Under the pieces are notes generated by a model that had not been told where the DNA came from, searched no databases, and was given only the letters and a program-made list of their open reading frames with translations. 64,000 bases of DNA from a virus: the IMG/VR virus record IMGVR_UViG_3300045988_079139, positions 4,378 to 68,377 of that record; one strand, 5' to 3'. Below, one piece after another: positions 44,533 through 64,000 of the stretch. Within the stretch, counting starts at the first letter, position 1; each line of letters opens with the position of its first letter. Position numbers and translations under genes: made by a program.

Positions 44533-44621
44533 GGGCAGTTTTAATTAAAAGTCCTAATTTAATTTTTAATTCTTATAGAAGGTAAAACTTTCTATAATTT
44601 AATCAAAGGAGAGATTCTATT

Positions 44622-44849: not shown

Positions 44850-44863
44850 TAAGAACCATATTA

Positions 44864-44900
44864 GGGGCGAGAGCTGATAAAGCTCTCGCCCTTATTTTTG
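44864..44900 (+). terminator. Rho-independent terminator
   Basis: ggggcgagagct-gataa-agctctcgccc hairpin followed by ttatttttg. Confidence 0.8.
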
Positions 44901-44981
44901 TTTCTCGGACAAATAAAATTAATTATATGAGTTTAATTTTTATACATATATAGAGAAATTTTTGAAAAGAGAGGTGTAAAA

Positions 44982-47663
44982 ATGGCTCAATTAAAAGATT
45001 TAATTGTAGCGGGAGCCTCAAGATTTCTAGGTAAAACTTATTTTGAAGACTCAGTTACATTTAATGACACCTTAATTTTAGCAAAATCGCAAGATTTATC
45101 TGGTATTGCTGATAACAGACCAGCTTTAATCGTAGGTGGATTACCATCAGAGTCTCATGTGGAGATAGATGCCAATGAAATCTAGGCTAAAAGCTCTGGC
45201 ACAGCGATTGCTTCATTATACATTAATAATGATGGTGGCTCAGTAATTTTAAGTGGTAATGTTACTACCGCTGCAGATGGCAATGATGTCACGGCCGCAG
45301 GTGGTGGAGCTTTACGTATTACTGGTGGTTTATCAACTACTAAAGCTTCCTACTTTGGTGGTGCAATTACTGCGGCAAGTACATTAGGAGTTAGCGGTAA
45401 AACAACTTTAAGCGGCGAAGCTTTATTAAAAGGTGTTACTAAAATTGAAAACACTTTAAATGTTACCAAAGCAGTTGATTTTGATAGCACTTTAAATGTT
45501 GATGGCAAATTAACATTAGGTGGCAATATCGCTTATCAAAATGGCTCATATAGTAATTATGATGTAATTAAGTTTCTCACTGGTGATGATAACGGAGCTG
45601 GTGTTGTAATCGGCGGTGGTGGAGTTGCAATTTTTGGTTCCGGTGAATCTGCTTCTAATTTAGCAACTGCCGCAAGCATAAGTGGCACAAGCGAAACTAC
45701 TTATATCACTTCTGATAATAATATTGAGTTTTATACTAATTGCCAAACTATTGGCGATAGAGTTGGTGTTATCCTAAATACTTCTCGATATTTTTATCCT
45801 AATGCTAATAATACCGGTAGTCTTGGTACTTCTGGCAACGTTTGGAATAGTCTATATGTAAATACTGCTAATATTAATGGAAATGCGACTGTTAAAGGAG
45901 CTTTAGTAGTTAATGGTACTACGACTTTAAAAGGAACATTAACTTTAGGTACATATGTAGATCAAGCAACAGTACCCTCCGATGGTGGTATTATTGTTAT
46001 GGATTTACGCAATGCCACTGTAACTCCAGATAGTTTTGGAGATAGAAGAGTTAATTTTTATTTTGACTAGATTACTGATGATTTTTATACAACTACAAGT
46101 GCAACAAGCCCATCTTCTGCCACTAAATGGATGGGTATATTGCATATGAAAGGTTGGAAAGATAGTACTTATGCCGCATGGGAATTAGCTGGTAATGCTG
46201 ATACTACAAGCGTTCAAGATACATTAAGATTTAGATAGGGCGTTGGTAATACTTGGGGAGCTTGGCAATCTGTTATTACTGATGCTAATATTAACCAGTA
46301 TATGGATGGCCGATATGTGAATGTCACTGGAGACTCAATGAGTGGACATTTATATATGACAGGATCTCATGCAAGCAGCAGTACAGCTAATACGTCCTAG
46401 ATTGTCATGGGAACTTCTTCTGCTCAACATTTTGCCTTAACCGCAAATGATAAAGCAGTTGTTTTTAACCCTAGTACAACAAGTACAGATAATCAAATTG
46501 TATTATATTTAAAAACTAATACTCAATCACTTTTCCCCAACGGTATTTCAGTTGGCGGAATTTTATCTACCTCTTCTGGAGCAGATGCTTCTGGTTCAAC
46601 TGGTTCAGGCGACTTAAGAGTAGCTGGCGGCGCAGGTATTGCTAAAAAATTATATGTTGGTTCTAATTTAAGTGTTGGTGGAACTGCCACTATAGCTTCT
46701 ACATTAGATGTGAATGGTGAAGCATATTTCGCTTAGAATATTACTTTTGACGGTGCAGCTAATAGAGATCAATGGATTAGTTTCTTGCACACTGGTTCTG
46801 AAACCGGTTATGATTGGCGCATTGGACATCAAGGAACTGGTTCAAGTGATGCTAACTATTTTGTTATTCAATCTAATTCTACAACTGGCACCTGGACCAA
46901 TGTTTTAAGATTGGGATTAACAAGTTTTGCCGCAGTTTTTGGTGGGTCTATTACTTCTGGAGGAAATGTTGTTCCAGGAACTACTAGTGCTTATACGCTA
47001 GGCACTTCTTCCAGTTATTGGAATAATTTATATACAAATGTTGCAAACGTAGGCAACGGAACAGATTCTTCCAATACTACCACTGGAGCTTTAATCGTTA
47101 ATGGTGGTGTTGGAATTAGTAAAAAATTATATGTTGGTACTAATTTAACAGTAAATGGTAACGCAACTCTTGGTGACGCAACCAGTGATACTCATAAAAT
47201 TAACGGCAACACTACATTCAATGGAATACTATATTTTGCAAATGGCACTACTTATTATATTAATGCTAGTGCAAGTGCTAAATTTTCAGGTTTAAATGTG
47301 GCTGGTAATGCAGCTGTTACTGGTACAATGAATATTGGCGGTAATACAACAATTGGCGATGCCACTTCTGATACTCATAAAGTAAATGGAAATATGACTC
47401 ATAATGGTCATATCTATTTAGCGAATGGTACAACTTATTATATCAATTCTTCTGCTACTGCAAATATTCTTGCATTAACAACTAATGGCGCAGTAAAAAT
47501 GAATGGTAATACAGCATCAAGCAATATGACTTCAGGTCAATTGGTTGTGGTTGGCGGTGTTGGTATAAGCGGTCAAGTTAATGCCAAATCGGTTCGACTT
47601 GACAATGCAGTAAGATTTGAGTATAATAGTACTGATAAATGTGTTGATGTTATATTTGATTAA
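44982..47663 (+). CDS. Tail fibre A (893 aa, 6 TAG) with internal beta-rich repeats
   Basis: The N-terminus MAQLKDLIVAGASRFLG is shared with 50167. The 46407 and 46785 fragments are co-frame. There are repeats GDATSDTHK(I/V)NGN and G.L.V.GG.GI.KKLYVG.NL.V. The segments DNNIEFYTNCQTIGDRVGVILNTSRYFYPNANNTGSLG and GDSMSGHLYM resemble tail-fibre sequence. Confidence 0.65.
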
Positions 47664-47674
47664 GGAGGACGCTT

Positions 47675-50146
47675 ATGAGTTTAATGGCTTGGTATCCTCT
47701 GGATGGTAATACTAGAAATCAAGGGGTTGGTAATCTAACCCCTAGTATTTCAGGTACTCTTACTTATGCAGCTGGAAAAATTGGGGCAAAAAGTCTAAGT
47801 GGTGGAGGATTAACTTGGACTGCCGATTAGACAGCTTCAGTTTTAAATAATAAAGAATTTTCTATTGCCTTTTGGATTAAACCAGTTGGAACTACTTCAG
47901 GTCCGATTTTTGGTAATACCGGCATGGGAGCATCAAACAATAGAAAATTTTGTATTTACGCTTATCCTACTGTTAATGACTTACATTGGAGCTGGATGAA
48001 TGATGCAGCGGAGGTTGTTTATGCAGGAGGGTCAATCAATGGCAGTTTACCCTCTAATAAATGGACTCATGTTTGTATCACATATAAAAATCCTCAAGGA
48101 TATGTATATATTAATGGAGTTTAGAAATCTTCATTTAGTGGAGAAAGTAAATCTTCATCTTTTAAATATGCAACAACAGTATTGCATAATAATACTAGTC
48201 GTTATATTAATGATTTGCGTATTTATAATCATGCCTTGTCTGTTAGAGAAGTCCAATAGGTAAGTCAAGGATTGATATTACACTTACCTCTTAAAGATTA
48301 GGATCTTGAGAGCACTACGAATTTGGCTCCATATCCAACGCCAGGAGCGGCTTATACGCCAGGTTGGGTAACAAATTTACATCCTGATGCAATTTCTGTA
48401 AGTAGTTGGTCTTCTGGATATAATGGCGGAGTTGGAACCCCACAAGCTGGTTATCATGCATATTGGAAAATGATGGATGGTATTCCGACGATGGTGTTTT
48501 AGCATTTAAATTCTCAATTAGGTCTAGGAAATCGTTGGCTAGGAATAAGCTGTGGAGATTTTCAAGGTAAAATTGGACCCTCAAAAACTTATACTATTTC
48601 TTTTAATGCAAAATCTAGCGTTGACGGAGTAGTGATATCTACAGGTTATTATTATCGAACAACAGGAAGCACTTCAAATAATTTTCATGATGGATGTCCA
48701 AGTACAGCCTTAACAACCTCATGGAAAAGATATAGTTTTACTTTTACAACTTTAAATACTTTAGATACTTCTGTTAATGCCTCTATGTATATTTATGGAC
48801 ATAATGGTTCTGTTAATGGCATTGCCTATGTTCGTAATATTCAAGTTGAGCTAAAAGATCATGCGACTTCTTATACACCAACTACTAGAACTGCTAGCAG
48901 TGTTATGGATTGTTCTGGTTATTAGCACCATGGCACAATGGTTGGAACGGTAGTACCAAAAAATGATAGCGCTCGATATGATACTTGTATTTACCAAGGT
49001 GATGGCGTAAATAATTATCTAAAGAGTGGAGCAATTACAATGCCAACTGATAGTGTTACTATGAGTTGTTGGTTTAAAAGTTCAACCACAGGATATAACG
49101 GTTATCACATTCCAATGGCAGTAAATTCTAGTTCTTATGAACTAAGTATTGATTCATCCGGCCATTTTAGAAATGGCTTTGTAATTGGTGGAACTCGTTA
49201 GGTATTAACCACTTCACATACTTCAATTCTTGACGGCAAATGGCATATGATTACTGCTACATATGATGGTGCAACTATTAGACGCTACTTAGACGGTAAA
49301 GAATTAACATCATATGCTACTTCTGCAACTGGAACTTTATCTGGAGTTACTTCTGAGTTGCTTGTAGGTAGTTATGGTAGTGGAGGCTATGGTAATAAAA
49401 ATGCTTATATGAGTGATATTCGTATTTATGCTACGGCTTTAAGTGCGGCCGCAATTAAAACTTTATATGAGTCTAGAGCATCTCTAAATTCCACAGGTAC
49501 TTTAATGACTTATGAATTTATTGAAGATGGTTCAGCAAATATTAAAATGACCAGTGAGGGCTTAATTCGTGCAGGAGTAGTAAGCGAAACACAAACTGCT
49601 TTTGGTATGCCTATAAAGGTTTTAAGTGATGGAAGTGCTTGGGCACGAATTCACTGGATTGATGTTACTGGAGTAAATTCATGGTTTGCTAATGCGACAG
49701 AAGTGGATGAATGTATAGATAAATCTAATCGATTTAGTCGTATGGGTTCAGTTGAAAAATTCATTGGATCTGATGGATATTACGAATTTATGTTAACCTA
49801 TCCTCGATTATCTAAAACAAACTTTAACCGCTGGAAGCAGACAAGCTCTCCAAAAGCAAGTACAGTTACTGGTTTTACACCTATTACGACAGCTTGGTCT
49901 GCTCATAATGGTGGTATTAGAAAACACGGAAGCTCTTGTTTATATAATTGTGATACTGGTTCAACATGGTTTGCTCCAATAGGCCAATATGGAAAATGGA
50001 CTGAAACTCAATATATACCTGCGGCTGACGGAAGTTCTTAGACTGAAACTGAATTATGGGTAAGAATTGATACCTTACCTTCTTTAAATAAAATTAGTAT
50101 GTTTGATAATAAATTTATTCAAGCATTGAATATACATGAAATATGA
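47675..50146 (+). CDS. LamG two-domain receptor-binding-type protein 2 (823 aa, about 8 TAG)
   Basis: AGGAGG RBS. The N-terminus MSLMAWYPLDGN is paralogous to 41725. The 47924, 48632, 48938 and 49247 fragments are co-frame, ending at TGA 50144. LamG motifs are INDLRIYNHALSVREV and MSDIRIYATALSAAAIKTLYESRAS. Confidence 0.6.
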
Positions 50147-50166
50147 GAGAAAGGAGCTGAAATTAA

Positions 50167-53100
50167 ATGGCACAACTAAATGATTTACTGGTATTGGGTA
50201 AATCTAATTTATTGGGCGATACTAGTATTTTTGGAGCCTTTAATATTAATGGTAATGTTGCTATCGACGGCACTTTAACTGTTGAAGATGCTACTTCATT
50301 AAAGAGTTCCTTGACAGTTGCTGGATCTTCTACGATTGGCGGAGCCACCACAATTGGTGGAGCTACTACAATTGGTGGCGTCTTAACCGCGTAGGATAAT
50401 ATTAAAGTTTCAAGTAATAAAACAATTATTCAAGCTCAAAGTTCTGGTAGTAACTACACTACAGTTATTAGATGGGATTGGGCGGATAAAGGTTCATTTA
50501 GCTACTATCCGCAAATTGGTCATCATAGTAATGGAGACACTACTGGCGCTATTGTTTTATTGCCATATGCCACTAATGCCAAGCCCTGGGATGCAAATGA
50601 TGGTTTATATATATCTGCGTCTAGATTAAGATGGAATAATTTAATTGCGGCTGATAATAGTAGAAATTTTTATCCTACTCAAAATGGCACTGGTTCCATT
50701 GGTACTTCAAGCTACTATTGGAATAATGGTTATTTAAATAACTTAACTATTAAAACAGCTTTAACTTTAAATGGAACAACATATTTAAATGGTAACTTAG
50801 TTTGGAAGCCAAGTGTTAATATTACTTGTACACCAACTGCTGCGAATCAAGAATTCTCAATTGACGTTGGTAGCAGTTCTTTTACAGGGTCTTATTTCCA
50901 TATTTGGTCTGCAGTTAAATCTACTTCGATTTTAAGTTGTTATCCAGATGATTTATCTGTGAAGATGGGCGGCGCTGTCACTATCGCAGGAGCCATCACA
51001 GCTAATAGTACAGCTTTAATTAAAGGCTCAACTGAAATTCAAAATAATGTTAAAATTACTAATGGTAACTTAACTATTCATAGAGACTCAACAAAGGCTG
51101 CAAATACACCAGCTAAAATTATTTTTTCTAACAAACAAACCGATGGTAATATTACAACAAATTCTGCCTGTATTGCTGCTTATGATGATCATGATGCCTC
51201 AAGTTATGGTCAAAATTTAGTTATTTAGGGTTGTTCTAATGTTGTTGTAGGTGCAGGTGAAAGTGCTACCAGTTTTTATGAAGCAGTTTTAAAAGATAGT
51301 TCATCAGAAGGTTTATATCTAACTTCTGATGGTAGTATTTATTTCTATCCTAAATGTGACACTGTTGCTAATAGAGTTGGAGTAATTCTTGATACTTCAA
51401 GACAGTTTTATCCCGACTCAAATAACACTGGTTCTTTAGGTGTAAGTTCTTACCGCTGGGCAAATGCATACATTGGTAATTTAAATGCTTCAGGAACTGG
51501 TACAATTTCTGGCAATACTTCTATTGGAGGCACATTAAGTGTAAGTAGCACTTTAACAGTTGGTAGTACCACATTATTAAAAAATACCTTAACTGTTCAA
51601 GGCAATATTTATATTAATCAAACTGCAGGTACAGGTACTGGCCTAGCTTTGTACGGAACAAGTGCACCTGCAACATATGGAGTTTATTTTGCTCAAACTG
51701 CTAATTTTAGTAAGCATGGCGACGTTCAAGGAGATTGGGCAACTTACTTTGGAATGAATGCCGTTGGTACAAGAGGTTGGATTTTCCGTCCTGGTACAAC
51801 AAATGTGGCAAGTATTTCCGCAAATGGTGTAGCATCTTTTTCTGCTATCGGTGATGGTGTTGCTTATTTAGCATTCCCCAAGGGCGGCACTCTAACTATT
51901 GGCTCTAGTGGCCAAAAAGGATATTTAACTATTGTAATGCCAGCAGGATTTAACTCCACAATGGTTAAATTCAAGGTATCTGTTTATAATTATTCAACCG
52001 GCACTTCTGTTGACTATATTATCGGAGGTTATTGTTATTCTTCTGATAATAAATGGTATAATCCAACTGCATATTGTATTGGTCCTAGAGGTAGCGGATT
52101 AGCAAACTTAACTGTTAATTACGGTATGTCTGGAAGTAATCCAGCAATTCAGATTGGTGCGGCAGACACAACTTGGGAATATCCAAATATCGCAATTTCT
52201 GATGTTTATTTAGGTCATAGCCGTAATTATTCTAATTGGTCTAAGTCATGGACCGTAAGTATTACCACAACTGCTATTACTTCTATCACACAAACTATAT
52301 CCAATACTTATATGGCCAACTTTAGCGGTACAAATAATAAAGTTGCTAAATTCTCTAATAGTGGTCTTAATATTACTAATAGTAATATTACTGATGATGG
52401 CTCCACTGTTACTATTGGTTCTAAACTTGTTGTTTAGGGTAATGGTAGTTCATATAATGAAGGTATTCGTATTTTACCAGCTTCAAATGGTTGGTCAAAT
52501 ATCTTCTTCTCCGCTGACTCCAGCGTTTAGGGAACTCATGATGGTGGATGGCTGATCGGACGACGCGGTGCCGTAGGTTCAACCGCAGGAGCTATTGGTG
52601 ACTTCACTATTGAAGAACAAGATTCTTCTGGCGTTAACCTCACTATTCACAAAGATGGTAATGGCGCAACGTTAATGGGTAGTTTACGCATTAATAAACC
52701 GATCATTTATAGCACAGAAGCTTCCGGTACTCGTATTCTGTATGGATCTACTCGTAATTCAGGTATGAAATATGACTATAGTGGCAATGAAAGTTTCATG
52801 ATTTCTGCTGGTACTTATGCATCTGCATCAATTCTACTATTGACCGGTGGACAATTAAATATGAATGATAGTAATGGTCAATGGAATGCTAGTACAACTG
52901 TTCCAGCAATGTCTCTGCGTAAGTCAGGTGTTGCAGTTAATTATAACTTAACTTCTGACCCAACTCATAATTTTTATGTTAAGGGTACTTCAAAATTTGA
53001 TGGTGTTGTTTTTGGTTATAATTATATTAATTCAAGTAACGCTGCAGCTTTTATGTGGGACAAGAATGGAACTAACTACACAGGCGTTGGTTCTTGTGGC

Positions 53101-54189
53101 GTAGCTGATACAATTCTTTTTGCTCCTTGTAGCGCAGACGGAGCTTGGGTAAGTAGTTATGAACAGATTTGGAGATTCCAAGGATCTATTGAATTCCCTC
53201 AAAACTCTGCTCGCGTAAGAGGAAATACTGCTACTGATTATACTCCTGTTTACATAAGTGGTGAGAAAAACACTTATGGCGGTATCGCTTTTTAGAATGG
53301 ATTGCATGTCATGTCTAGTGCAGATCACCATGGTTTTTGGGACGGTACATGGATCCTTTATCGAAACACTTCTCATGGAGCTATTAGTATTGGTACCGCT
53401 CAAACCACTGCTAACGGATATGCAATTACTCTTGCGGGAAGTACTTATATTAATGGTAATACATCCATTAATGGAACTTTAACTATGAGCAACGCTATTC
53501 AACTACAAGTTGATGGTGGTAACTGGTATAATCCTATTAAGAATTTAACACATAGTGGACTATATTATGATGCGTCAAGTTCTAATACTTCTACCTACTG
53601 GAGTTTAATTGCTTTAAAATTCCCTAACCAAACTTACTCTTTAGGTGGCGAGCGCTCCGGAAATACCTTCGGTATTTATAGTTACAATAACAGTAGAACA
53701 GATAACGGATACGATGGAGCTCTTTACGTTCATGGTGGCAACCACTACTTCTATTGTACTACTAGACTATATGGCGCTGTATGGAATGACTATGCGGAAT
53801 TCCGTACTCAAGAGCAAGAAGTAGCCCCAGGCTATTGTGTCGCTTCTAGAGATAATGGCAAAATTCATAAAACCCATAAGAGACTATAGGCTTGTGACGG
53901 TATTGTCTCTGATACTTATGGTTTCTCCATTGGTGAAAATGAAGAAAATAAAACGCCTCTTGCTGTTGCAGGTCGTGTACTTGCATACTGCGAAGGAGAT
54001 AAAAACGATTATCGTGCTGGTGATACTGTTTGCGCAAGCGAAAATGGTAAAGTCTGCAAGATGACTCGTGAAGAAATTCAAATGTGGCCTGACCGAATTG
54101 TTGGTACAGTTTCTGAAATTCCTGATTATGAAATTTGGGGAACTGGAAAGGTTAAAGTTAATGGTCGTATTTGGATTAAAGTAAAATAA
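50167..54189 (+). CDS. Tail fibre B (1,340 aa, about 8 TAG), paralogous to fibre A at the N-terminus and at an internal segment
   Basis: RBS gagagaaaggag. The N-terminus is MAQLNDLLVLGKSNLLG. The 50560, 51649, 52675 and 53302 fragments are co-frame. The segment DGSIYFYPKCDTVANRVGVILDTSRQFYPDSNNTGSLG matches fibre A. A TAG at 53887 precedes the last 100 aa, and the gene ends at TAA 54187. Confidence 0.65.
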
Positions 54190-55119: not shown

Positions 55120-55827
55120 ATGTTTAATGGAAATGGTTATTCTTTGGCAGATGTCGCTGCCGCAACTCGTGGCACAGAAGATGGTTTCTTCGGTGGAGCA
55201 AATGGATGGTGGATTATCCTACTGTTTATGTTCTGCGGCTGGGGTAATGGCGGATGGGGTGGCAACCGCACTGGCACTGAGAATGTGCGCGATGCTGTCG
55301 CATATGGTTTCGACATCAATAATTTGGAGAATGGCGTTCGTGGTTTAGAACATGGCATTTGCGATGGTTTCTATGATATGAACACTTCTCTGCTAACTGG
55401 TTTCGGCAATGTTGCAATGGGCAATATGCAGAATACCAATGCTCTTATGGGTCGTTTGTCTGATATGGCTGCACAGAGTGCTGCCTGCTGCTGTGAGACT
55501 CAGCATCTAATTGAGAGAGGATTGTGTGAAGTTAATTATAATATCCTAACTCAATCTAACGCAACAAATACTAATATTGCGTCTGCCGCACGTGATATTA
55601 TTGAAAGCAACAATAACGGCGTTCGTTCCATCCTAGACTTCTTGACTCAGGACAAGATTGCTACTTTGCAGGCTGAAAATCAGGCTTTGCGCTTGACCGC
55701 TTCTCAGCAGGCTCAGAATGCTTTCTTAATCGACCAGCTAGGAACTAAAGCACCCGTTCCCGCATATGTAGTAGCTAATCCTTATGCTTCTGGATATTAT
55801 GCTGGCTGTGGATGCAGTAACATCTAA
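55120..55827 (+). CDS. Membrane-anchored Gly/Trp- and Cys-rich protein (235 aa), TAG-free, with host-like codon usage
   Basis: AAGGAGG RBS. It has one predicted TM helix (WWIILLFMFCGW) flanked by GG(A)NGW and GWGNGGWGG, then CCC and CGC cysteine clusters and a Gln/Asn-rich coiled-coil-like C-terminus. Gln is encoded almost entirely by CAG. Confidence 0.65.
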   Translation: MFNGNGYSLADVAAATRGTEDGFFGGANGWWIILLFMFCGWGNGGWGGNRTGTENVRDAVAYGFDINNLENGVRGLEHGICDGFYDMNTSLLTGFGNVAMGNMQNTNALMGRLSDMAAQSAACCCETQHLIERGLCEVNYNILTQSNATNTNIASAARDIIESNNNGVRSILDFLTQDKIATLQAENQALRLTASQQAQNAFLIDQLGTKAPVPAYVVANPYASGYYAGCGCSNI

Positions 55828-56701: not shown

Positions 56702-56751
56702 AAAAAATAAAGGCGAGATAATCATCGTGATTATCTCGCCTTATTTTTTTT
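56698..56751. terminator. Bidirectional rho-independent terminator between the converging late (+) and replication (-) operons
   Basis: aggcgagataat / attatctcgcct hairpin flanked by A9 on the left and T9 on the right. Confidence 0.8.
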
Positions 56752-57290: not shown

Positions 57291-57776
57291 TTAAGACCAG
57301 TCGAATACTTCGACCTTGTTATTTACATAATGAGCACCAATACAAATAGCATCACATTCATCTTGAGTTGGTTTTACGCCATAGGTTTTTTCAACCCAGG
57401 CCTGTGCCGCTTTCTTTTGGGCTGGACGATCCTTGCCCTTGATTCCAAGAGTGGATTTCCATACCGTAGAAAGAACTGCGGTACGAGGCATTTTTAAAGT
57501 TACAAATAATTCATATAAAACGCCAAACACTTCTGCCAATGCTTTAAATGTAGCTACATTATTTGCCACATTACCTTGTAATTGGATATCTTCAAAAACC
57601 ACTTCATCAATATCATATTCATCAATGAGCGAGTTTACTTTACTTCTGATAAAATGTAGTCTATCTCCAACATCAGAATGGTCTGCAGTAAACTTGCCAA
57701 AAGTGACAAGCTTACCATCATTGAATACAGCCCATCCGCTTGTGCGGCTTGCTTGATCTAATGCTAGAACTCGCAT
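57291..57776 (-). CDS. ruvC: RuvC-like Holliday junction resolvase (161 aa)
   Basis: N-terminal motif MRVLALDQASRTSGWAVF with a RuvC/YqgF-like acidic catalytic pattern. TAG-free. Confidence 0.55.
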   Translation of the reverse strand: MRVLALDQASRTSGWAVFNDGKLVTFGKFTADHSDVGDRLHFIRSKVNSLIDEYDIDEVVFEDIQLQGNVANNVATFKALAEVFGVLYELFVTLKMPRTAVLSTVWKSTLGIKGKDRPAQKKAAQAWVEKTYGVKPTQDECDAICIGAHYVNNKVEVFDWS

Positions 57777-58315
57777 TACTTAGAAGTAGAGCCAAATCCG
57801 CCAGTGCGTTCTCCACCTGCGACGTCATTTTCAGTTACGCCGTAGGGAAGAATAATTGCCTGACCAATGGCCTCTCCCTTTTTGATTTGAATATTGAATG
57901 GAGATAGATTATAAATCTGGAAGAAGATTTCTCCTTCATTGTCTGGATTGTTGTAATAATCAGCATCAATAATGCCAATACCATTACCCATCATTAACCA
58001 ATACTTTAAAGGAGAAGAGCTACGAACACTCAACTGCAACCAAGTACCTGGGTCAAGCTTGCACTTCATACCAGTAGAAACAAGAGTTGGCTTGAAGCCA
58101 GTTTCCTTTGTGAATTTAGCCATTAGCTCCATAGTGACGAACTCATCATTAGCTACGGGCCACAACTCTTTAGCTTCTGCAACCATTTGCCACAAGGAAG
58201 GAATAATATAATCCTCTGCAGCAACCATATCATAACCTGCGGACTGTGCAGTCTTTCTGACCGGCATAGCAATATCCGCATCTGTATATTTAGAAACTTT
58301 TTCAAAAATAGCCAT
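57776..58315 (-). CDS. dut: dUTP diphosphatase (trimeric dUTPase, 179 aa)
   Basis: Motifs SVRSSS, GIIDADY...GE and the C-terminal GGERTGGFGSTSK. TAG-free. Confidence 0.85.
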   Translation of the reverse strand: MAIFEKVSKYTDADIAMPVRKTAQSAGYDMVAAEDYIIPSLWQMVAEAKELWPVANDEFVTMELMAKFTKETGFKPTLVSTGMKCKLDPGTWLQLSVRSSSPLKYWLMMGNGIGIIDADYYNNPDNEGEIFFQIYNLSPFNIQIKKGEAIGQAIILPYGVTENDVAGGERTGGFGSTSK

Positions 58316-58320
58316 CTTAA

Positions 58321-58566
58321 TTAACCCCTTTCATAAGATACGGTAAACACATCTTCAGGGTCTTTTTCTGCAGTGAACTGCTTAGTGGCCTGAACTACCA
58401 TATACTCTTCTATTACTTCGCCCTTGGCCTTAATCTGCTTTACCTTATAACTAAAGCCGACCAAGTCAAAACAAGGGTCGTTTAGAAGCTCGTCATGAAG
58501 AGCTTCAACTGCTGCCTCATCGGGCACTCTGTAAGTGTCAACTGCTTTCAATAAATATCTGCTCAT
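58321..58566 (-). CDS. Hypothetical protein (81 aa)
   Basis: ORF in the tightly packed minus-strand operon. Confidence 0.45.
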   Translation of the reverse strand: MSRYLLKAVDTYRVPDEAAVEALHDELLNDPCFDLVGFSYKVKQIKAKGEVIEEYMVVQATKQFTAEKDPEDVFTVSYERG

Positions 58567-58844
58567 TACTTTAATACCTCAACTTCAATATTATTCCAAC
58601 TATAATGTTTCTTTGAATATGCTAGCACATCTTCTGCAACGGCCGCACCGTACACACTATTACCAGCCAATGTTACTTTAAATACTTTTTTTGCATCACA
58701 AATAGCACTGATTACTTCTGGCAGTTCCTCCAAAGTAGTAATCGCAACCTGGTCCTTAGTGCCAACTGCGGGGTCAACAACATAGATATTTTGATGCAAG
58801 TCAAACATATGAATTTCGCAATATACTCTCTTCATCTCATTCAC
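58566..58844 (-). CDS. Hypothetical protein (92 aa)
   Basis: ORF with 1-nt and 8-nt overlaps with its neighbours, suggesting translational coupling. Confidence 0.45.
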   Translation of the reverse strand: MNEMKRVYCEIHMFDLHQNIYVVDPAVGTKDQVAITTLEELPEVISAICDAKKVFKVTLAGNSVYGAAVAEDVLAYSKKHYSWNNIEVEVLK

Positions 58845-59331
58845 CTACTTCTACAAGTCCCAAGTCATAAGGGAATAAATACAAACAAGTGGGTTCATCA
58901 TTATTAATAACCCAAATCTCAACAGCATCATTTGCTTCAGTCATATCTACTGCTTTAACAGTACCAACATTGGGAATGCAATCAGCAACAGTATCACCAA
59001 ACATTAGAGGCTCGTTTACCTTAAATAATGTAAAGTAAGAAATCTCTTTACCATACATCATATAATATGTGTTGTGATGAAAATTATAAAAATCATTCAA
59101 TAAAGCCTCAACTCTATCCCAGTCGGTTAAATCGGGAAGCTGCGCAATAATCTGCTTATTCATATCATATAAACTCAAATCAATGCCAGAACTTTCCATA
59201 TTGATCGTATTCCATTGATTATCTTTCCAGATAAGATATTCTCCTTCTGGGTTCTGGACAATTTCTCCCTCCTGGGGAGTATATCTGATTTGAGAAGGGT
59301 CAATCTTTTTGATTTTAATTTCATTGCCCAT
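58837..59331 (-). CDS. Hypothetical protein (164 aa)
   Basis: ORF in the operon, TAG-free. Confidence 0.45.
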   Translation of the reverse strand: MGNEIKIKKIDPSQIRYTPQEGEIVQNPEGEYLIWKDNQWNTINMESSGIDLSLYDMNKQIIAQLPDLTDWDRVEALLNDFYNFHHNTYYMMYGKEISYFTLFKVNEPLMFGDTVADCIPNVGTVKAVDMTEANDAVEIWVINNDEPTCLYLFPYDLGLVEVGE

Positions 59332-59369
59332 ATCAAATCTCTCCTTTATCTCTTGATATATCTATTATA

Positions 59370-59852
59370 TCAATTTTTTTTCTTTAAGTCAATAATTCGC
59401 TGATTGCGGGAGCCTCTCATTTCCAGTGTAACATCACGCTCTTCTTCAATATATGGACCATCAATTAAGAAGTCCGCAATCTCCAAAACGTGTTTTACTT
59501 GAGGATGACTCGCGTGTTGTAGCTGTTCATATGTATAGCCACTCCAGATATATACCTTTGTTCCTGGAACTTTCTCCTTAACCTCTTTAGCTACCAAATA
59601 GGTAAGGAAAGCATTTTCGTCACAAAGAGGTTCGCCGCCCATGATACACAAATCTCTTTGTATACCCTGGGCGGTTAGTCCGGAGATAATCTCATTTAAA
59701 GTCCCAGTAGTAAATTCCTTACCACGGTTGAAGTCCCAAGTTTCAGGATTATGGCATCCTTTACATCTGTGCGGACATCCTTGTACAAAAAAGCTGACAC
59801 AAAGACCGGGCGCGGCGGTAATATCATTTAAAATTAAACCACTATATTTCAA
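59370..59852 (-). CDS. nrdG: Anaerobic ribonucleoside-triphosphate reductase activating protein (radical SAM)
   Basis: CPHRCKGCHNPETWD radical-SAM cluster motif, a length of 160 aa, and a position directly downstream of nrdD. Confidence 0.85.
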   Translation of the reverse strand: MKYSGLILNDITAAPGLCVSFFVQGCPHRCKGCHNPETWDFNRGKEFTTGTLNEIISGLTAQGIQRDLCIMGGEPLCDENAFLTYLVAKEVKEKVPGTKVYIWSGYTYEQLQHASHPQVKHVLEIADFLIDGPYIEEERDVTLEMRGSRNQRIIDLKKKN

Positions 59853-59902
59853 TGGAATTTACTCCTTTCTTATTAGCGTAGCTAACTTGTAGTTAACTAC
59901 GA

Positions 59903-62110
59903 TTAAGAAAATTTACTATGCTTAACTCTGTGTTCAACCTCTGACTGTTTTCCTTTGTTAAAATGGCGATAATCAGTGGTTAGATAGCCTGTAACACGAC
60001 GCAGTTGCTGAATGTTGTGGCTGCCGCATTCGGGACAAGCATCATTGAATTCAGCCTGGTAGCCGCAATCTAAACAAGAGTCAATTGGGAAGTTGAATGC
60101 TAGATAAGGAATATCCAACTTCTGGAATGCATAGTCAATAATCTGCTCAATTGCTTTTGTATTCTTCACGAAAGTAGAATCTAACTCAACGTAAGTGATG
60201 CATCCACCAGTAGGATACTTACAGAAAGGAGATTCAACTTCTAACTTTTCAAAGATACCAATTTCGTGCCACACGGGAACATGGTGGCTATTGGTTAAGA
60301 ACTCATGGTCAGTGACATTAGGAATAATACCATACTGCTTACGAAGAGCCTTTGCCGCAGTATGACACAAACCTTCAGCAGGAGTTGCATAACAAGAGAA
60401 GTTCAAGTCATGTCTGTCAGAAGCCTCTTTTGCGTATTCGTTAATTCTCTTAACAACTTTTAAAGCAAAAGCATGAACTTCTTTATCTTCTGCGTGATTC
60501 TTACCAAACAGCGCCTGGCACATTTCAGCAATACCAATATAACCCATAGCTAGAGTTCCGTGCTTCAGTGCTTCATAGTTAGACATTACACAATCTTGAG
60601 CGTCTTTCATAGTACCATTCTGATACATAAAAGGAGCAGCTTCAGGTGGCTGATTAACCATAATATCAAAACGCTCCAGAAGACCCTGTTCACAAAGCAT
60701 CAATAAATCCTCGAACGCAGACCAGAAACCGTCTAAGTCCGGGGTCTCACGCTTGCCCAGACAAACTCCGTATTCAATACCAAGCTTCGGCAAAATCATA
60801 GTATTAGGAACAAGGTTTCCACGACCGACACGATTATAGGAATCAGTATGTCTGTCATAACCAAGCATGGTGCGGCAACCCATAGTGGCGAAATAAGTAT
60901 CCTTATTATCTGGGTCTTCATGTGCTTGAGAATAATCACAATTGACAAAGTTAGGATAAATACGCTTACTCAAAGACTCAATAGCCATCTGCTTTAAGTC
61001 ATAGTTGGGGTCGCCAGGGTTGGCATTACATCCAGCCTTATACTGGAAAATACTAATTGGGAAAATAGGAGTTAGGTGATGCTTGCCGATACCGGACATA
61101 GAAGCACCCAACATTTTCTTGGTTACAAAACGGCCTTCACTAGAAGTGTCACGACCAAAGTTGATGGAAGTGAAAGGAACCTGGCTTCCCGCACGGGACT
61201 CCAAAGTGTTCAAATTATGGAACATTGCTTCAGCAGACTGCTTACCTTCACGTTCCAGTTGCTTTAGTGCGAAAGCAAAAGCCGCACTCATATCTTGTTT
61301 CAACTGATGATTGTCCATTTCAATGGGACCGTGTTGATTTAAAATAATATCAGCATTTTCATCGCTCTGACCTTCAACATCAGTTAGATAGTGATGCATA
61401 TGTTTACGGAAACTCTTCTTAACAAAAGGAGCCAAGTCGTAGTCCAGGTGAACAGTACCAACTCCGCCGAACTGTACTTGCGACTGGCATTGGAAAATAA
61501 CTGCTGTTTGCTGGCATGCACTACTTAAAGTAGCAGGAGGACGAATATCACCATTACGAGTTACAAAACCTTCATTGAAAACTTTTTCAAAGTCTACAAA
61601 TAAACAGTTGTGTTCACCAATGTTGGTTTTCTCCAAATCGTGTTGGTATAATAGCATATTCTTGTGTGCTTGGCTAACTTCTGGAGAAAGAGTATAATCC
61701 AGCGCAATCACTTTTTGAACATCTGCTGACGCCTCTTTTTCACGACCGGAGAAGCTCTTCTCGTCTACGTTAGCATTTGAATTTTCGACAGCGGTAGCTT
61801 CAGTGCGCTTCATAACAGCTCTGATTAACTTACTACGACGAGTACGCTCCTTGCTACGCTGATCACGATAAATAATATAAGATTTAGCTACTGCTGGATA
61901 TTCACTCTTCATCAAGTAGCTCTCAACTAAATCTTGAATTTGTTCGACGGACATATCGACACCGCGACTACCAATTAAATCTGCAATCTCTTCAGCAGTA
62001 TCGGATTCATACACGGAGCCATATGCACTGACCATCGCTTTATTAATGGCACGGACAATCTTGTTTGGATCAAACAGAACGCGAGTGCCGTCTCTCTTAA
62101 TTACGTGCAT
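59903..62110 (-). CDS. nrdD: Anaerobic (class III) ribonucleoside-triphosphate reductase
   Basis: 735 aa. It has an N-terminal ATP-cone (VIKRDGTRVLFDPNKIVRAI), a C-terminal Zn ribbon (CLDCGYQ...CPECGS) and the glycyl-radical motif RVTGYL. GGAGG RBS. There are zero TAG codons in 735 codons. Confidence 0.9.
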   Translation of the reverse strand: MHVIKRDGTRVLFDPNKIVRAINKAMVSAYGSVYESDTAEEIADLIGSRGVDMSVEQIQDLVESYLMKSEYPAVAKSYIIYRDQRSKERTRRSKLIRAVMKRTEATAVENSNANVDEKSFSGREKEASADVQKVIALDYTLSPEVSQAHKNMLLYQHDLEKTNIGEHNCLFVDFEKVFNEGFVTRNGDIRPPATLSSACQQTAVIFQCQSQVQFGGVGTVHLDYDLAPFVKKSFRKHMHHYLTDVEGQSDENADIILNQHGPIEMDNHQLKQDMSAAFAFALKQLEREGKQSAEAMFHNLNTLESRAGSQVPFTSINFGRDTSSEGRFVTKKMLGASMSGIGKHHLTPIFPISIFQYKAGCNANPGDPNYDLKQMAIESLSKRIYPNFVNCDYSQAHEDPDNKDTYFATMGCRTMLGYDRHTDSYNRVGRGNLVPNTMILPKLGIEYGVCLGKRETPDLDGFWSAFEDLLMLCEQGLLERFDIMVNQPPEAAPFMYQNGTMKDAQDCVMSNYEALKHGTLAMGYIGIAEMCQALFGKNHAEDKEVHAFALKVVKRINEYAKEASDRHDLNFSCYATPAEGLCHTAAKALRKQYGIIPNVTDHEFLTNSHHVPVWHEIGIFEKLEVESPFCKYPTGGCITYVELDSTFVKNTKAIEQIIDYAFQKLDIPYLAFNFPIDSCLDCGYQAEFNDACPECGSHNIQQLRRVTGYLTTDYRHFNKGKQSEVEHRVKHSKFS

Positions 62111-62195
62111 AATAAAACCTCCATTTAAAAAACTATATTTTGTAGATGGGCAAAAAACCTCTTACTAGATATAGTGTTTCTTCTTAATCAATTAA

Positions 62196-62765
62196 TTACT
62201 TTTGTCCTCGCGCGAACCTGCGTCCGCTCTGGACCAAAATCTCCTTGACGTTATCTTCCAGGTCACCAGGAGTGTTGTTAATCAGACCGGTGTAGCTGAA
62301 ATCAATATTATCGAAATCATTATAGTCAGCTTGGAAACGTCTGACAACTTCTCGAACGTCAGGGTCCTCTTCTCTATTTAACTGGCGTAATAGACGGATC
62401 TTGTCATTGGTTTGAATCCAAAAGACGAGAACATTACAATCCGGACGAGCCAAGAGAGACTCAACACCTGTGGGATTGAATACTCCAATGTTAATTACTC
62501 CATCACTGCGGACAGAGTCATAACTTGTGCCATAGAACCAGTCATTAAAAACAGTACACTCTAACATTTCTCCATCAAGAACTTTCTATCCGAATTGCTC
62601 GGGAGTGTAATAAAAGTAATTAACTCCGTGCGCTTCACCCTAGCGCATAGGACGAGTCGTACAGCTGATAATTTCGTGGAGGGTAGGGTCGGCCGCAAGC
62701 ACAGCCTACATAGTCCGATCTTTACCAGAACCTGCTTCTCCCATTAAGGCAATAACGTTGTACAT
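62196..62765 (-). CDS. gmk: Guanylate kinase-like nucleoside monophosphate kinase (189 aa) containing 3 in-frame TAG codons
   Basis: ATG at 62765 with GAGGAGG upstream. P-loop GEAGSGKD, then the GK signature CTTRPMR(TAG)GEAHGVNYFYYTPEQFG(TAG)KVLDGEMLE...FYGTSYDSV. The TAGs are at 62708, 62645 and 62588 on the minus strand. It overlaps the upstream gene by 22 nt. Confidence 0.6.
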
Positions 62766-62992
62766 TTAATGTCTTCCTCCTCTTCAAATTCGTATTCTAG
62801 CTTACCAGGAAGTTCGCCTTCCCAGAAAGTTGCATGACCATCACAATCGAGATTCTCACACTTATAAGGATATTGTGCTGGATAAGTAGTGAGACAAATG
62901 CCAGTGGGGATTAACTCCCCACCGCACTTATCACAAATTGCTCTGGTTGTATAAATATTTTTTACTTTGTATCTTTTAAGCATCTTCCTCAA
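62744..62992 (-). CDS. Small zinc-finger-like protein (82 aa, CxxC...CxxxxC)
   Basis: Cys pairs CDKCGG and CENLDCDGH. It overlaps both neighbouring genes. Confidence 0.45.
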   Translation of the reverse strand: MRKMLKRYKVKNIYTTRAICDKCGGELIPTGICLTTYPAQYPYKCENLDCDGHATFWEGELPGKLEYEFEEEEDIKCTTLLP

Positions 62993-64000
62993 TGCCTCCT
63001 TGATAACGAGAGTCTTTCAATACCAATTCTCCATTGGGAAGAACTGACTCAATCTTATATAACTGGTGACCGCCCGTAGAAGCATACTTCTTAGATACAA
63101 AATCGTCACCAGAACGAATACCAGTAACCACAATCATATTTCCACGATTGAACCAAGACTTCTCCATAATCTTCTTAGTTCCATCTGCTTGACGCTCAGA
63201 AATCTGCTTATCAAACATTGTAAAATATTCTTTTCTAAACTTGACATTTACAACACCTGTTGTAGTCAAAATAGTTACTGTACTCTTAGTCTTATTCTTC
63301 GCAATACAAGTGCCGCAGATACGATTCAACTTAAAGATATGAATATCTTTTCCGCCCTTTGTGAAAGTCTTCTCAATCACTGGGTCTTCTGGTAGACTAT
63401 AAAAGTCTACAAAACCATATTTGTCGTTATTAATATGCTCAAGTTCATGCTCGTGATAATAGAAGCACAATACTTCCATTTCCCACGCGGAGATAGTTCC
63501 CTTCGCATATTTCTCCCAATCCTGCATAAAGATTTCAGTATTCAGTGCATCTAAGATAGCTTCTTTGTCAGACGCAATCCATGCTCTAAATACATCCATA
63601 TGCTTCTGGTAAATTGCATCCCAATTCTTAGTTTTTACAAACCAAGCAAGGTTATCTGTTTCCATAATATCATCACATTCAATTTCATGCAAGAACGCAA
63701 TTGCTCTTTCATCAAGTGAATACATATTAGGATAAGCATATTTATCTGCCTTTGTAATTGCTTTTAAATATCTGTTAAACTCGTAGACTCTACGAGCCAA
63801 AACCTGTTCAGGAGTCTTTTCAGGCAGAAGATTATGTTTAATCAAACCACCCATATTCTGTAATGTGATACGACTCTTCTTATCACAAGTCTCCCAAATA
63901 TACCATGCCATAGTAAACTTTCTATCTTCCATATCATCAAAAGCTCCGCCCTTGATTAGAGAAATCATTGCCTGCTTACTAGGCTTAACTTTATTCAAAA
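62976..64000 (-). CDS. dnaE: DNA polymerase III alpha-subunit-like replicative polymerase, C-terminal part (partial; the N-terminus lies beyond the window end)
   Basis: LIKGGAFDDME matches the DnaE helix-hairpin-helix region (LIKAGAFD). The C-terminal OB-fold-like segment reads TVTILTTTGVVNVKFRKEYF...NMIVVTGIRSGDDF. The ORF runs into the window edge. TAG-free. Confidence 0.55.
   Translation of the reverse strand, partial: LNKVKPSKQAMISLIKGGAFDDMEDRKFTMAWYIWETCDKKSRITLQNMGGLIKHNLLPEKTPEQVLARRVYEFNRYLKAITKADKYAYPNMYSLDERAIAFLHEIECDDIMETDNLAWFVKTKNWDAIYQKHMDVFRAWIASDKEAILDALNTEIFMQDWEKYAKGTISAWEMEVLCFYYHEHELEHINNDKYGFVDFYSLPEDPVIEKTFTKGGKDIHIFKLNRICGTCIAKNKTKSTVTILTTTGVVNVKFRKEYFTMFDKQISERQADGTKKIMEKSWFNRGNMIVVTGIRSGDDFVSKKYASTGGHQLYKIESVLPNGELVLKDSRYQGGIEEDA

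Follow-up and report, generated by a model that had tools for sequence, protein, structure and literature searches.

Stop-codon-recoded phages were reportedly treated by Ivanova in 2014. In recoded cellular organisms, the reassigned or ambiguous codon is depleted in highly expressed genes, as general codon-reassignment theory describes. In stop-codon-recoded gut phages, the replication genes keep the standard code while the late genes are recoded, and the idea of a temporal gate between the two is already published (Yutin, 2021, PMC7886860; Borges, 2021/22, doi 10.1101/2021.08.26.457843; Peters, 2022, PMC9523058). Borges et al. described alternative-code use in the replication machinery as "variable", ran per-family tests of the preference for TAG versus CAA/CAG and proposed a temporal-switch model (doi 10.1101/2021.08.26.457843); the temporal-gate model is also that of Peters et al. 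(PMC9523058). The gut phage phAss-1 represents the proposed "Phassvirus" group, or "Caudoviricetes code 15 clade" (PMC10607447, GenBank OQ749652).

The window analysed here, a stretch of 64,000 nucleotides from the IMG/VR record IMGVR_UViG_3300045988_079139, comes from an SPbeta-like siphophage of an anaerobic gut community that uses TAG for Gln (genetic code 15), and its host is probably a member of Bacillota. The genome has a GC content of 35%. When TAG was read through, the long-ORF content of the window rose from 15,173 to 24,042 aa and the tape measure protein (TMP) gene became a single 3269-aa ORF with 41 in-frame TAGs, bearing out the recoding assumed in an earlier note on this DNA. Gln was the commonest residue aligned to window TAGs in standard-code relatives (145/464). 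The minus-strand unit ends with a gene whose TAG directly faces Gln in the ortholog of relative L169 (...ATLAEQKLDEK...). A search of the window and of 160 related loci yielded neither a suppressor tRNA nor a release-factor gene. The family comprises 38 standard-code and 113 recoded loci, on contigs reaching about 200 kb. A terminator-like hairpin divides the convergent virion (plus-strand) and replication (minus-strand) units (Table 1).

Table 1. Features of the window, with strand and in-frame TAG content
Feature	Position	Strand	Remarks
Tail tube (major tail) protein, SPbeta YomU type	73..1011	+	PF27173 YomU_Tube; phrog_2729; synteny to TMP, Enterococcus phage VRE9_2
Tape measure protein (TMP), 3269 aa	3027..12836	+	PF10145 in ortholog; 41 TAGs
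Seven late tail-fibre/host-recognition-type genes, ~15 kb	26568..41711	+	3 TAGs in 4,837 codons
Four large fibre-like genes	41725..54189	+	Two with LamG + CBM_4_9 domains
235-aa single-TM protein, function unassigned	55120..55827	+	phrog_16490; 0 TAG
Bidirectional intrinsic-terminator-like hairpin	56710..56742	.	15-bp stem, T-runs on both sides
Final gene of minus-strand unit, 156 aa, N-terminal TM helix	56755..57225	-	phrog_4105/4257; 1 in-frame TAG, codon 49
RuvC-like Holliday junction resolvase	57291..57776	-	0 TAG in window
dUTPase	57776..58315	-	0 TAG in window; family TAG share 6.6%
Three small function-unassigned genes	58321-58566, 58566-58844, 58837-59331	-	0 TAG
NrdG, anaerobic RNR activase	59370..59852	-	0 TAG in window
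NrdD, anaerobic RNR, 735 aa	59903..62110	-	0 TAG in 34 Gln codons
Guanylate-kinase-family nucleotide kinase (Gmk), 189 aa	62196..62765	-	3 in-frame TAGs
Zn-finger-like small protein (CxxC...CxxxxC)	62744..62992	-	0 TAG; overlaps both neighbours
Pol III alpha-type DNA polymerase (Pol), C-terminal 340 aa, cut by window end	62976..63998	-	0 TAG

The earlier note held that the replication operon avoids TAG entirely. Its identification of RuvC, dUTPase, NrdG, NrdD and the polymerase fragment was correct; these genes, the Zn-finger gene and the tube gene hold no in-frame TAG, and the TAG-free operon genes are complete as judged by full-length profile matches. However, the operon as a whole is not TAG-free, since Gmk carries three TAGs and the final gene carries one. 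That final gene lies outside the coordinates of the earlier note. One of the three hypothetical genes counted there as TAG-free, the 123-aa standard-code ORF 62196-62567, corresponds to the C-terminal portion of Gmk, whose TAGs (codons 20, 42 and 60) all lie within the first 60 codons. They were overlooked because a count of zero TAG in standard-code ORF calls is partly circular. Only the read-through Gmk matches Guanylate_kin end to end (PF00625, E=1.8e-16; Gmk residues 4-175, model positions 4-174 of 182) and contains the P-loop and TTRPxRxGE motif, and its match to phrog_1815 reaches E=3.9e-27 versus 1.9e-10 for the truncated form. Furthermore, a GAGGAGG ribosome-binding site precedes the Gmk ATG at 62765, all 17 of 17 standard-code relatives have CAA or CAG at codon 20, and the TAGs and the N-terminus are kept in L169, an 89%-identical relative. 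A read-through extension of the gene at 58566 to 58931 looks spurious, with a 95-nt overlap with the upstream gene and no family match.

TAG accounted for 3 of 83 Gln codons in the operon versus 107 of 491 in the TAG-rich late genes (Fisher P=1.6e-5). The pooled operon depletion stood in binomial (P=3e-6) and permutation (P=4e-4) tests and after a scan-statistic correction (P=0.002), applied since the region was chosen post hoc. NrdD alone was informative (binomial P=2e-4), whereas most small operon genes, with only 1-9 Gln codons each, were individually uninformative. As a control for composition, we used TTG:CTG, a synonymous first-position T/C pair internal to the same genes. The depletion held under this control, with an operon TAG:CAG of 3:45 versus a TTG:CTG of 41:15 (P=1e-12), that is, 35 TAGs expected and three observed. 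In the late genes, the corresponding ratios were 107:52 and 151:27; the fraction of 0.67 was lower than that of 0.85 (P=2e-4), and the genome of the window is therefore not fully at equilibrium. TAG use was heterogeneous among genes (per-Gln chi-square P=6e-4; permutation P=0.001), and no 5' bias of TAG codons within genes was seen. In the TMP, taken as the reference TAG-rich late gene, TAG made up 21% of Gln codons (TAG:CAG 41:21), and in the four fibre-like genes 17-36%. The rate of about 1.2% of codons reported earlier for the TMP and fibres fitted the TMP (1.25%) but not the large fibre-like genes (0.45-0.97%).

The tube and 235-aa membrane protein genes are also TAG-free, as had been claimed, though significantly so only against the T/C control and across the family. 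Per Gln codon, neither was significant alone (P=0.22 and P=0.13, respectively). Against the control, TAG:CAG was 0:8 versus a TTG:CTG of 6:3 in the tube gene (P=0.009) and 0:10 versus 8:2 in the membrane protein gene (P=7e-4; family TAG share 6.3%). The tube gene had an AAG/Lys of 0.88 and a GC3 of 0.41, and the membrane protein gene a GC3 of 0.39. Both encode Gln almost exclusively as CAG (CAG:CAA 8:1 and 10:1, respectively), a habit the earlier note extended to the operon, where CAG:CAA is 45:35.

Counts over about 40 de-duplicated recoded relatives (identical DNA removed; the statistics ignore kinship) showed that only Pol (2 TAGs in 13,445 codons, 0.6% of Gln codons), the tube (4 in 13,799, 0.9%) and two capsid-module proteins, YonB (1.8%) and the adjacent 293-aa head protein (1.5%), avoid TAG consistently. 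The TAG share was 5.9% in NrdD (TAG in 28 of 38 relatives), 15.5% in Gmk, 20% in NrdG (30 of 37), 30% in RuvC, 38% in the TMP, 45% in YomW and 52% in YomV. TAG/(TAG+CAG) versus TTG/(TTG+CTG) was 0.80 versus 0.86 in the TMP, 0.875 versus 0.84 in RuvC and 0.86 versus 0.78 in YomV. In relative L004, whose C-terminal fragment of Pol shares 95% identity with that of the window, the full Pol gene (1320 aa) and the primase, DnaB-like and RecD-like genes hold no TAG, and TAG is present in the RuvC (three), Gmk (four) and RecJ-like (two) genes. The boundary of avoidance is thus neither the operon nor a gene class, but is graded gene by gene. Across the family, TAG share decreased as codon bias rose (Spearman coefficients of -0.44 for the AAG fraction, P=0.02, and -0.58 for the TTC fraction, P=0.002) and did not follow protein conservation (P=0.36). 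The tube and capsid-module proteins have strong codon bias (AAG/Lys 0.64-0.77); in the head module of relative L166, YonB, which from gene order is probably the capsid protein, has a CAG:CAA of 14:1, an AAG/Lys of 1.00 and no TAG. Pol, with a fully AT-shifted TTG:CTG ratio (0.86) and an AAG fraction of 0.25, shows no codon optimisation, suggesting a second, separate cause of its lack of TAG.

Considering these results, we propose that the uneven use of TAG probably reflects a gene-by-gene balance of mutation and selection. With TAG read as Gln, AT-biased mutation pressure in a genome of this GC content would drive synonymous changes from CAG to TAG, and in tolerant genes TAG:CAG would climb to the T:C ratio of TTG:CTG, about 0.8, a state that the TMP, connector proteins, most fibres and RuvC of relatives appear to have reached. 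Purifying selection may clear TAG from two kinds of genes. The first would be the core replisome (Pol III alpha family-wide, primase and helicases in L004), lacking codon optimisation and presumably translated by the unmodified host apparatus, to which TAG is a stop, before or independently of the phage suppressor system. The second would be the most abundant virion proteins (tube, probable capsid protein and scaffold-position protein), with strong translational codon bias, in which imperfect suppression competing with host RF1 may be too costly. The recoding, the gene identities, the TAG statistics of each gene and their persistence among relatives are shown by the data; what we infer for this uncultured phage is the timing, the level of expression and how costly suppression is, the labels "early" and "abundant" being drawn from what the genes do, where they lie and their codon bias. 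In the accessory operon genes (Gmk, NrdG, RuvC, RecJ-like, and partly NrdD and dUTPase), selection against TAG would be weak or absent, which would account for the TAGs they carry in the window or in relatives; their synthesis would thus depend on suppression, despite co-transcription with TAG-free genes.

The block of seven late genes at 26568..41711 is as TAG-poor as the operon, though neither early nor obviously abundant, and belongs to the same functional class as the TAG-rich genes at 41725..54189. It went unremarked in the earlier note. The block includes a 2229-aa protein that has a BspA-type LRR and matches CotH weakly, below threshold, and the codon usage of the block is ordinary, with low GC3, and indistinguishable from that of its neighbours except for TAG. 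It leaves a model built on early and abundant genes without an explanation at this point, and the two-cause scenario is therefore incomplete. TAG-poor segments might instead be recent recombinational imports from standard-code relatives, mosaic in ancestry and too young to have gained TAG, an explanation we consider unlikely. Standard-code and recoded members are indeed mixed in the family, and the tail module varies greatly: no pattern match in IMG/VR was obtained for one gene of the block, and a flanking tail protein had only three relatives there (39-53% identity). The genes at 29448-37983 share 86-88% aa identity with the close relative L172 versus 97-99% in the flanks, and the block of the distant relative L173 does carry TAG (16%), suggesting that avoidance here is lineage-specific. 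However, the block differs from that of L172 by 37 switches between CAA and CAG, time enough for TAG to arise unless the divergence accrued in standard-code genomes, and only five changes involve TAG, versus 5/8 in the flanking genes; its codon usage also otherwise resembles that of its neighbours. Moreover, avoidance in the operon and abundant virion genes is kept in about 40 recoded relatives with AT-shifted TTG:CTG, which argues for selection.

More doubtful still is a strict gate by time or gene class, the reading of the earlier note and of the Borges model at its simplest, in which TAG is a designed switch, the whole replication operon is written in the standard code for use before suppression, and late low-copy genes depend on TAG. 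The lack of TAG in most operon genes of the window, in Pol family-wide and in the other core replisome genes of L004 agrees with it, as does its publication for crAss-like and Agate phages. In a looser sense the earlier note is upheld, since among the relatives both Pol and the virion proteins made in greatest amount are kept nearly free of TAG, in agreement with the published model, but the boundary it draws is not. The TAGs of Gmk and the final gene, within a tightly packed unit with Pol and NrdD, contradict the strict form; in relatives, TAG also occurs in RuvC, where it stands at the neutral ratio, and in NrdG, Gmk and the RecJ-like gene. The dependence of low-copy late genes on TAG fails for the seven-gene block, next to fibre-like genes rich in TAG, and the tube and capsid-module genes are also TAG-poor. 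The lack of 5' enrichment counts against a designed gate, which might produce one, and with TAG:CAG about equal to TTG:CTG, TAG-rich genes can be explained without positive selection. An origin by chance, from base composition or as an artefact of ORF calling, by which standard-code ORFs are TAG-free by definition and short, Gln-poor genes often so, is very improbable and refuted as a full explanation: the small operon genes, the tube and membrane protein tests and the circularity that concealed the Gmk TAGs fit it, but the NrdD, pooled operon and T/C control probabilities, the completeness of the TAG-free genes and the repetition of the pattern in relatives do not.

The balance of mutation and selection proposed here can be set beside known systems. 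The phage of the window resembles recoded gut phages in its TAG-to-Gln code with a presumably standard-code host, in its in-frame TAGs mainly in virion genes with a DNA polymerase lacking TAG, and in a family holding both standard-code and recoded members. In crAss-like phages, however, the MCP, TerL and portal genes hold recoded stops, whereas the tube and probable capsid genes of this family avoid TAG. Among published recoded phages, a tail tube family is preferentially recoded, unlike here; the sequence available for this family showed no suppressor tRNA, and its TAG-rich genes lie at a neutral T:C ratio. The gut phage phAss-1 is likewise TAG-recoded, with a size of about 136 kb versus contigs of up to about 200 kb in this family, and has Pol III alpha, RNR activase, dUTPase and a long TMP; in its group, close genomes differ in whether NrdG, dUTPase and holin contain TAG, as do the window and its relatives. 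The similarity is distant, with 42.5% identity between tube proteins and no nucleotide-level similarity to the window detected, and phAss-1 has three tRNA-Sup(CTA) genes, whereas the window and related loci yielded none. Among large siphoviruses of Bacillota, SPbeta-like or related, the Bacillus SPbeta group, Enterococcus phages EF1/VRE9 and the Lactococcus 949 group share a Pol III alpha-type polymerase and the virion module (YomU tube, YonB, YomW, YomV, YomO and a TMP of great length), but are cultured, and deposited and annotated with intact standard-code genes, at a protein identity of only about 35-40%. As in recoded cellular organisms, the genes with the strongest codon optimisation hold the fewest reassigned codons; unlike them, the phage of the window has a second TAG-free class, the polymerase, whose lack of codon optimisation suggests that something besides translational efficiency is at work.

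The window is a phage sequence in which TAG is read as Gln (code 15), because read-through of TAG increased ORF length, aligned TAG columns pointed to Gln, and TAG was matched by Gln in an ortholog. The gain was specific to TAG: the standard code gave 15,173 aa of long ORFs in the window, which rose to 24,042 aa when TAG was read through but only to 17,364 aa when TGA was, and the longest ORF grew from 1725 to 3269 aa with TAG as a sense codon. Under the standard code the plus strand held short ORFs, which TAG read-through merged, in the tape measure protein (TMP), into one ORF of 3269 aa. In alignments with standard-code relatives, Gln was the commonest residue at the TAG columns of the window (145 of 464), followed by Glu (83) and Lys (46), and TAGs lay inside conserved domains, including a match to positions 3–140 of the 141 of phrog_20016 that spans an in-frame TAG. 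A search for tRNA genes in the window (64 kb) and, at 160 related IMG/VR loci, within ±10 kb of the Pol and tube genes found none; a suppressor, if phage-encoded, would lie elsewhere in the approximately 130–200 kb genome. The first 103 codons of the TMP gene were dense in TAG, which made up 8 of the 16 Gln codons there.

Gene content and order place the window in an SPbeta-like siphovirus. An SPbeta-type virion module is present according to precomputed Pfam assignments of identical or orthologous genes (PF27173, PF27364, PF27256, PF27211, PF27287 and PF10145); among these, the tube gene carries PF27173 (YomU_Tube) and the TMP of an ortholog was called as PF10145. The neighbours of the tube gene in near-identical contigs are YonB, YonD_N, YomW, YomV, YomO and PhageMin_Tail. 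In tblastn, the C-terminal fragment of the polymerase (Pol) matched the Pol III alpha proteins of the SPbeta group and of Enterococcus phages EF1/VRE9 at approximately 35% identity, and the window shares gene order with Enterococcus phage VRE9_2. A nucleotide search of GenBank phages gave no close relative of the window; related contigs in IMG/VR numbered several hundred and reached approximately 200 kb. Among the 160 loci fetched, 113 looked TAG-recoded and 38 looked standard-code, the two groups showing approximately 60–70% protein identity; a change of genetic code has therefore taken place within this family. Relatives binned in MAGs were mostly assigned to Clostridia and other Bacillota, but their taxonomy was inconsistent, and the contigs found in the scan of bacterial genomes were phage-like. 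Exact-protein look-ups with NrdD returned nothing, and the same look-ups with the tube, truncated kinase and fibre homologs matched.

Positions of the features in the window, their in-frame TAGs and the TAG share of Gln codons in recoded relatives
Feature	Position	Strand	In-frame TAG	Family TAG share of Gln codons
Tube	73-1011		0	0.9%
TMP	3027-12836	+	41	38%
TMP start	3027-3335	+	8	
Fibre-type block	26568-41711	+	3	
2229-aa fibre-like protein	31294-37983	+	2	
654-aa protein	38308-40272	+		
Fibre-like neighbours	41725-54189			
Second hairpin	54194-54222			
235-aa membrane protein	55120-55827	+	0	6.3%
Hairpin between units	56710-56742			
Last gene of minus-strand unit	56755-57225	-	1	
RuvC	57291-57776	-	0	30%
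dUTPase	57776-58315	-	0	6.6%
NrdG	59370-59852	-	0	20%
NrdD	59903-62110	-	0	5.9%
Guanylate kinase (Gmk)	62196-62765	-	3	15.5%
Pol C-terminal fragment	62976-63998	-	0	0.6%
293-aa head protein				1.5%
YonB-type protein				1.8%
YomW				45%
YomV				52%

The earlier note had described the minus-strand replication operon as free of TAG. The identities that it gave to RuvC, dUTPase, NrdG, NrdD and the polymerase fragment were right, and these five genes, like the tube and membrane protein genes that it had also listed, lack in-frame TAG. The unit as a whole, however, contains four TAGs spread over 2 of its 11 genes, and the claim was partly circular, because ORFs called with the standard code by definition hold no TAG. 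The standard-code ORF at 62196-62567 (123 aa) covers only positions 68–182 of a guanylate-kinase PHROG, whereas the read-through form of 189 aa, with TAG at codons 20, 42 and 60, matched Pfam PF00625 (Guanylate_kin) over positions 4–174 of 182 (E=1.8e-16), a full span obtained only with read-through, and phrog_1815 with E=3.9e-27. It carries the P-loop GEAGSGKD and the motif TTRPxRxGE, and the gene, whose ATG follows GAGGAGG, runs over the stop codon of the Zn-finger gene upstream of it. All 17 standard-code relatives had CAA or CAG at codon 20, and one relative (L169) kept all three TAGs and the N-terminal sequence. The last gene of the unit, directly upstream of a strong bidirectional terminator, requires one TAG, which is Gln in the 89%-identical L169 ortholog (ATLAE-TAG-KLDEK vs ATLAEQKLDEK). 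A read-through extension of the ORF at 58566-58844 to 58931 was rejected as spurious, since it would run into the gene upstream and matched no family. The terminator-like hairpin that parts the convergent virion and replication units has a perfect 15-bp stem and T-runs on both strands, and a second perfect bidirectional hairpin of this type has a 13-bp stem, also with T-runs on both strands.

The depletion of TAG in the operon is real. TAG accounted for 3 of 83 Gln codons in the operon vs 107 of 491 in the TAG-rich late genes (Fisher P=1.6e-5), and for 0 of 34 in NrdD alone (P=2e-4). Permutation of Gln-codon labels among TAG, CAA and CAG, as the earlier note had proposed, indicated heterogeneity among genes (P=0.001) and a deficit in the operon (P=4e-4; 0.002 when corrected for the choice of region). 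For a control of composition, TAG/CAG was treated as a synonymous first-position T/C pair and benchmarked on TTG/CTG of the same genome. The late genes were near neutral (TAG:CAG 107:52 vs TTG:CTG 151:27), whereas the operon showed 3:45 vs 41:15, with 35 TAGs expected (P=1e-12), so that the difference in TAG distribution persists after this control. The tube gene (0:8 vs 6:3, P=0.009) and the membrane protein gene (0:10 vs 8:2, P=7e-4) were depleted on this benchmark as well. The earlier figure of 1.2% TAG in the TMP and fibres held for the TMP, but fibre-like genes had 0.45–0.97%; likewise, almost exclusive use of CAG for Gln was found in the membrane protein (CAG 10 : CAA 1) but not in the operon (45:35). 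No 5' positional bias of TAG was detected across all genes (KS P=0.2; 0.75 without the TMP), which argues against a purpose-built gate.

In the 160 loci, ORFs were called with TAG read through and matched to genes of the window and to head genes of a further relative (L166), and family TAG shares were calculated from recoded loci only after identical DNA had been removed. The shares were graded gene by gene (see table), from Pol, with 2 TAGs in 13,445 codons, through NrdD, with TAG in 28 of 38 relatives, to YomV. In the TAG-rich families, TAG/(TAG+CAG) was close to TTG/(TTG+CTG) (TMP, 0.80 vs 0.86; RuvC, 0.875 vs 0.84; YomV, 0.86 vs 0.78); these genes are thus at mutational equilibrium, and their TAG content calls for no positive selection. 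In L004, a relative whose Pol C-terminal fragment shares 95% identity with that of the window, no TAG occurred in the full Pol III alpha of 1320 aa, the primase, the DnaB-like helicase or the RecD-like helicase, and the RecJ-like gene, Gmk and RuvC had 2, 4 and 3, respectively. In the same relative, a TAG-free gene (4081-4968) that lies upstream of Pol amid the replication genes encodes a 295-aa protein, secreted or membrane-bound, that carries a lysozyme-like motif (GIMGNMMAECGG).

TAG share fell as two indices of codon bias rose, the AAG fraction (rho=-0.44, P=0.02) and the TTC fraction (rho=-0.58, P=0.002). Evolutionary rate was rejected as a driver of TAG share, which was not correlated with protein conservation (Spearman 0.18, P=0.36). 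Pol, which avoids TAG, shows no codon bias (AAG fraction 0.25, GC3 0.20), whereas the tube, YonB-type and 293-aa proteins avoid TAG with strong codon bias (AAG 0.64–0.77), indicating two separate causes of avoidance. The YonB-type protein is the probable capsid protein, as judged from gene order, in which it follows the portal and scaffold-position genes; PDB sequence searches with the tube and YonB-type proteins gave no match, and PHROGs gave neither a functional name. The membrane protein, encoded toward the end of the late unit, has a single TM segment, a Cys-rich C-terminus and a match to phrog_16490; its codon bias is extreme (GC3 0.39), and it is probably very abundant.

The block of seven genes for tail-fibre or host-recognition-type proteins, which share common fibre N-terminal motifs, does not fit "early or abundant", and neither early timing nor high abundance explains its scarcity of TAG. 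It held 3 TAGs in 4,837 codons (TAG:CAG 3:63 vs TTG:CTG 73:11, P=1e-26), with the same GC3 and Leu codon use as its TAG-rich neighbours; in the adjacent fibre-like genes, two of which carry LamG and CBM domains, TAG made up 17–36%. In L172, a close relative, the block was TAG-poor as well, with TAG at 2 of 139 Gln codons, despite 37 switches between CAA and CAG that separate this genome from the window; only 5 switches concerned TAG. In L173, a distant relative, TAG reached 21 of 134 (16%) vs 37% in neighbouring genes. The scarcity may reflect import from standard-code relatives, consistent with the greater divergence of the genes at 29448-37983 from L172 (86–88% aa identity) than of the flanks (97–99%), or it may reflect selection for a code-neutral, exchangeable cassette. 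In the 2229-aa protein, read-through joins standard-code ORFs of 238, 1725 and 201 aa in one frame; it contains a BspA-type LRR and, below threshold, a weak match to CotH, and its orthologs have 2232 aa in L172 and 2251 aa in L173. The 654-aa protein has repeated, Ig-like-looking segments and is codon-optimised (CAG 17 : CAA 4, AAG/Lys 0.63); an IMG/VR pattern scan gave no match to it, yet its L172 ortholog was 97% identical (aa) over the aligned part, and the same type of scan with a tail protein flanking the block gave only three distant loci. The proteins starting at 26568, 29448, 31294 and 41052 share the N-terminal motif K/R-F-x-R-G ... G-x-hydrophobic-Y-F-x-x-D ... Y-x-G, which suggests paralogous fibres docking on one baseplate site.

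The interpretation in the earlier note, a temporal or abundance gate with replication genes kept compatible with the standard code, was partly supported, as its observation was partly confirmed. In its favour are the low TAG shares of Pol family-wide and of the tube and YonB-type genes and the TAG-free primase and helicases of L004; against it stand Gmk and the last gene within the operon, the RuvC, NrdG and RecJ-like genes of relatives, which carry TAG, and the late but TAG-poor fibre-type block. Pol family-wide, and the primase and helicases in L004, thus conform to the temporal code-switch architecture of Borges et al., but the operon as a unit does not. Late genes were themselves divided into those using TAG for 17–52% of Gln codons (TMP, connector proteins and many fibres) and those avoiding it (tube, YonB-type, 293-aa head protein and the fibre-type block). 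No lysis gene was identified within the 64-kb window.

Considering the observed distribution and conservation of TAG, we propose that a mutation–selection balance is the most likely explanation, with timing, expression level and suppression efficiency as inferred terms. AT-biased mutation would load tolerant genes with TAG. Core replisome genes, which would have to function with the unmodified termination machinery of the host, would be purged of TAG by selection, and so would the virion genes translated at the highest levels, in which leaky suppression would be costly. In accessory operon genes selection would be weaker, so their translation would depend on suppression. We consider it unlikely that, in two more situations outside published models, genes are actively kept free of TAG. 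In the first, abundant virion proteins would avoid TAG because phage-driven suppression is leaky even late; reassignment would then never be complete in such phages, and TAG density would be a readout of tolerated truncation cost. In the second, the 15-kb host-recognition cassette would be kept code-neutral for exchange between standard-code and recoded members, and the code difference would be a recombination barrier circumvented by selection for host-range modules. A related reading, also unlikely, is that the TAGs in Gmk, RuvC and NrdG would delay translation of these genes within an early polycistronic mRNA.

If the mutation–selection picture holds, per-gene TAG density is mostly passive, set by mutation pressure and tolerance of suppression dependence, rather than a designed on/off switch, and the popular model of recoding as a lysis timer is tempered. 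The comparison of TAG:CAG with TTG:CTG provides a simple internal neutral control usable on any code-15 genome. Furthermore, code-11 gene calling can truncate genes in seemingly standard-code modules, as with the nucleotide kinase here, and code 15 is needed throughout the annotation of such phages. The present analysis adds a TAG-dependent kinase in a "standard-code" operon, a graded family pattern, a neutral T:C benchmark and a TAG-poor fibre block outside the early-or-abundant model.

Avoidance of the recoded codon by replication genes is already in the literature. In crAss-like phages, reassignment occurs mostly in late genes (Yutin et al., 2021; PMC7886860). Borges et al. (doi 10.1101/2021.08.26.457843) found that structural and lysis genes of eight clades use an alternative code, with standard-code replication machinery in crAss-like and Agate phages and "variable" use in other groups, performed per-family tests of TAG vs CAA/CAG, and put forward an explicit temporal-switch model. 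Peters et al. (2022; PMC9523058) gave proteomic support. In close genomes of the published code-15 gut phage phAss-1, the presence of TAG in NrdG, dUTPase and holin varies (PMC10607447). The "Phassvirus" genus is delimited at >80% nucleotide identity (PMC10607447), and the window had no nucleotide match to GenBank phages; the tube, 42.5% identical, was its sole link to phAss-1, whose group is at most a distant relative. The observation and interpretation of the earlier note are thus essentially the published picture in a different, SPbeta-like family, and the differences are modest. The TAG-rich genes here match the neutral expectation. The genes that avoid TAG here include those for the tube and the probable capsid protein, whereas recoded stops occur in the MCP, TerL and portal genes of crAss-like phages, and recoding is preferential in a tail tube family.
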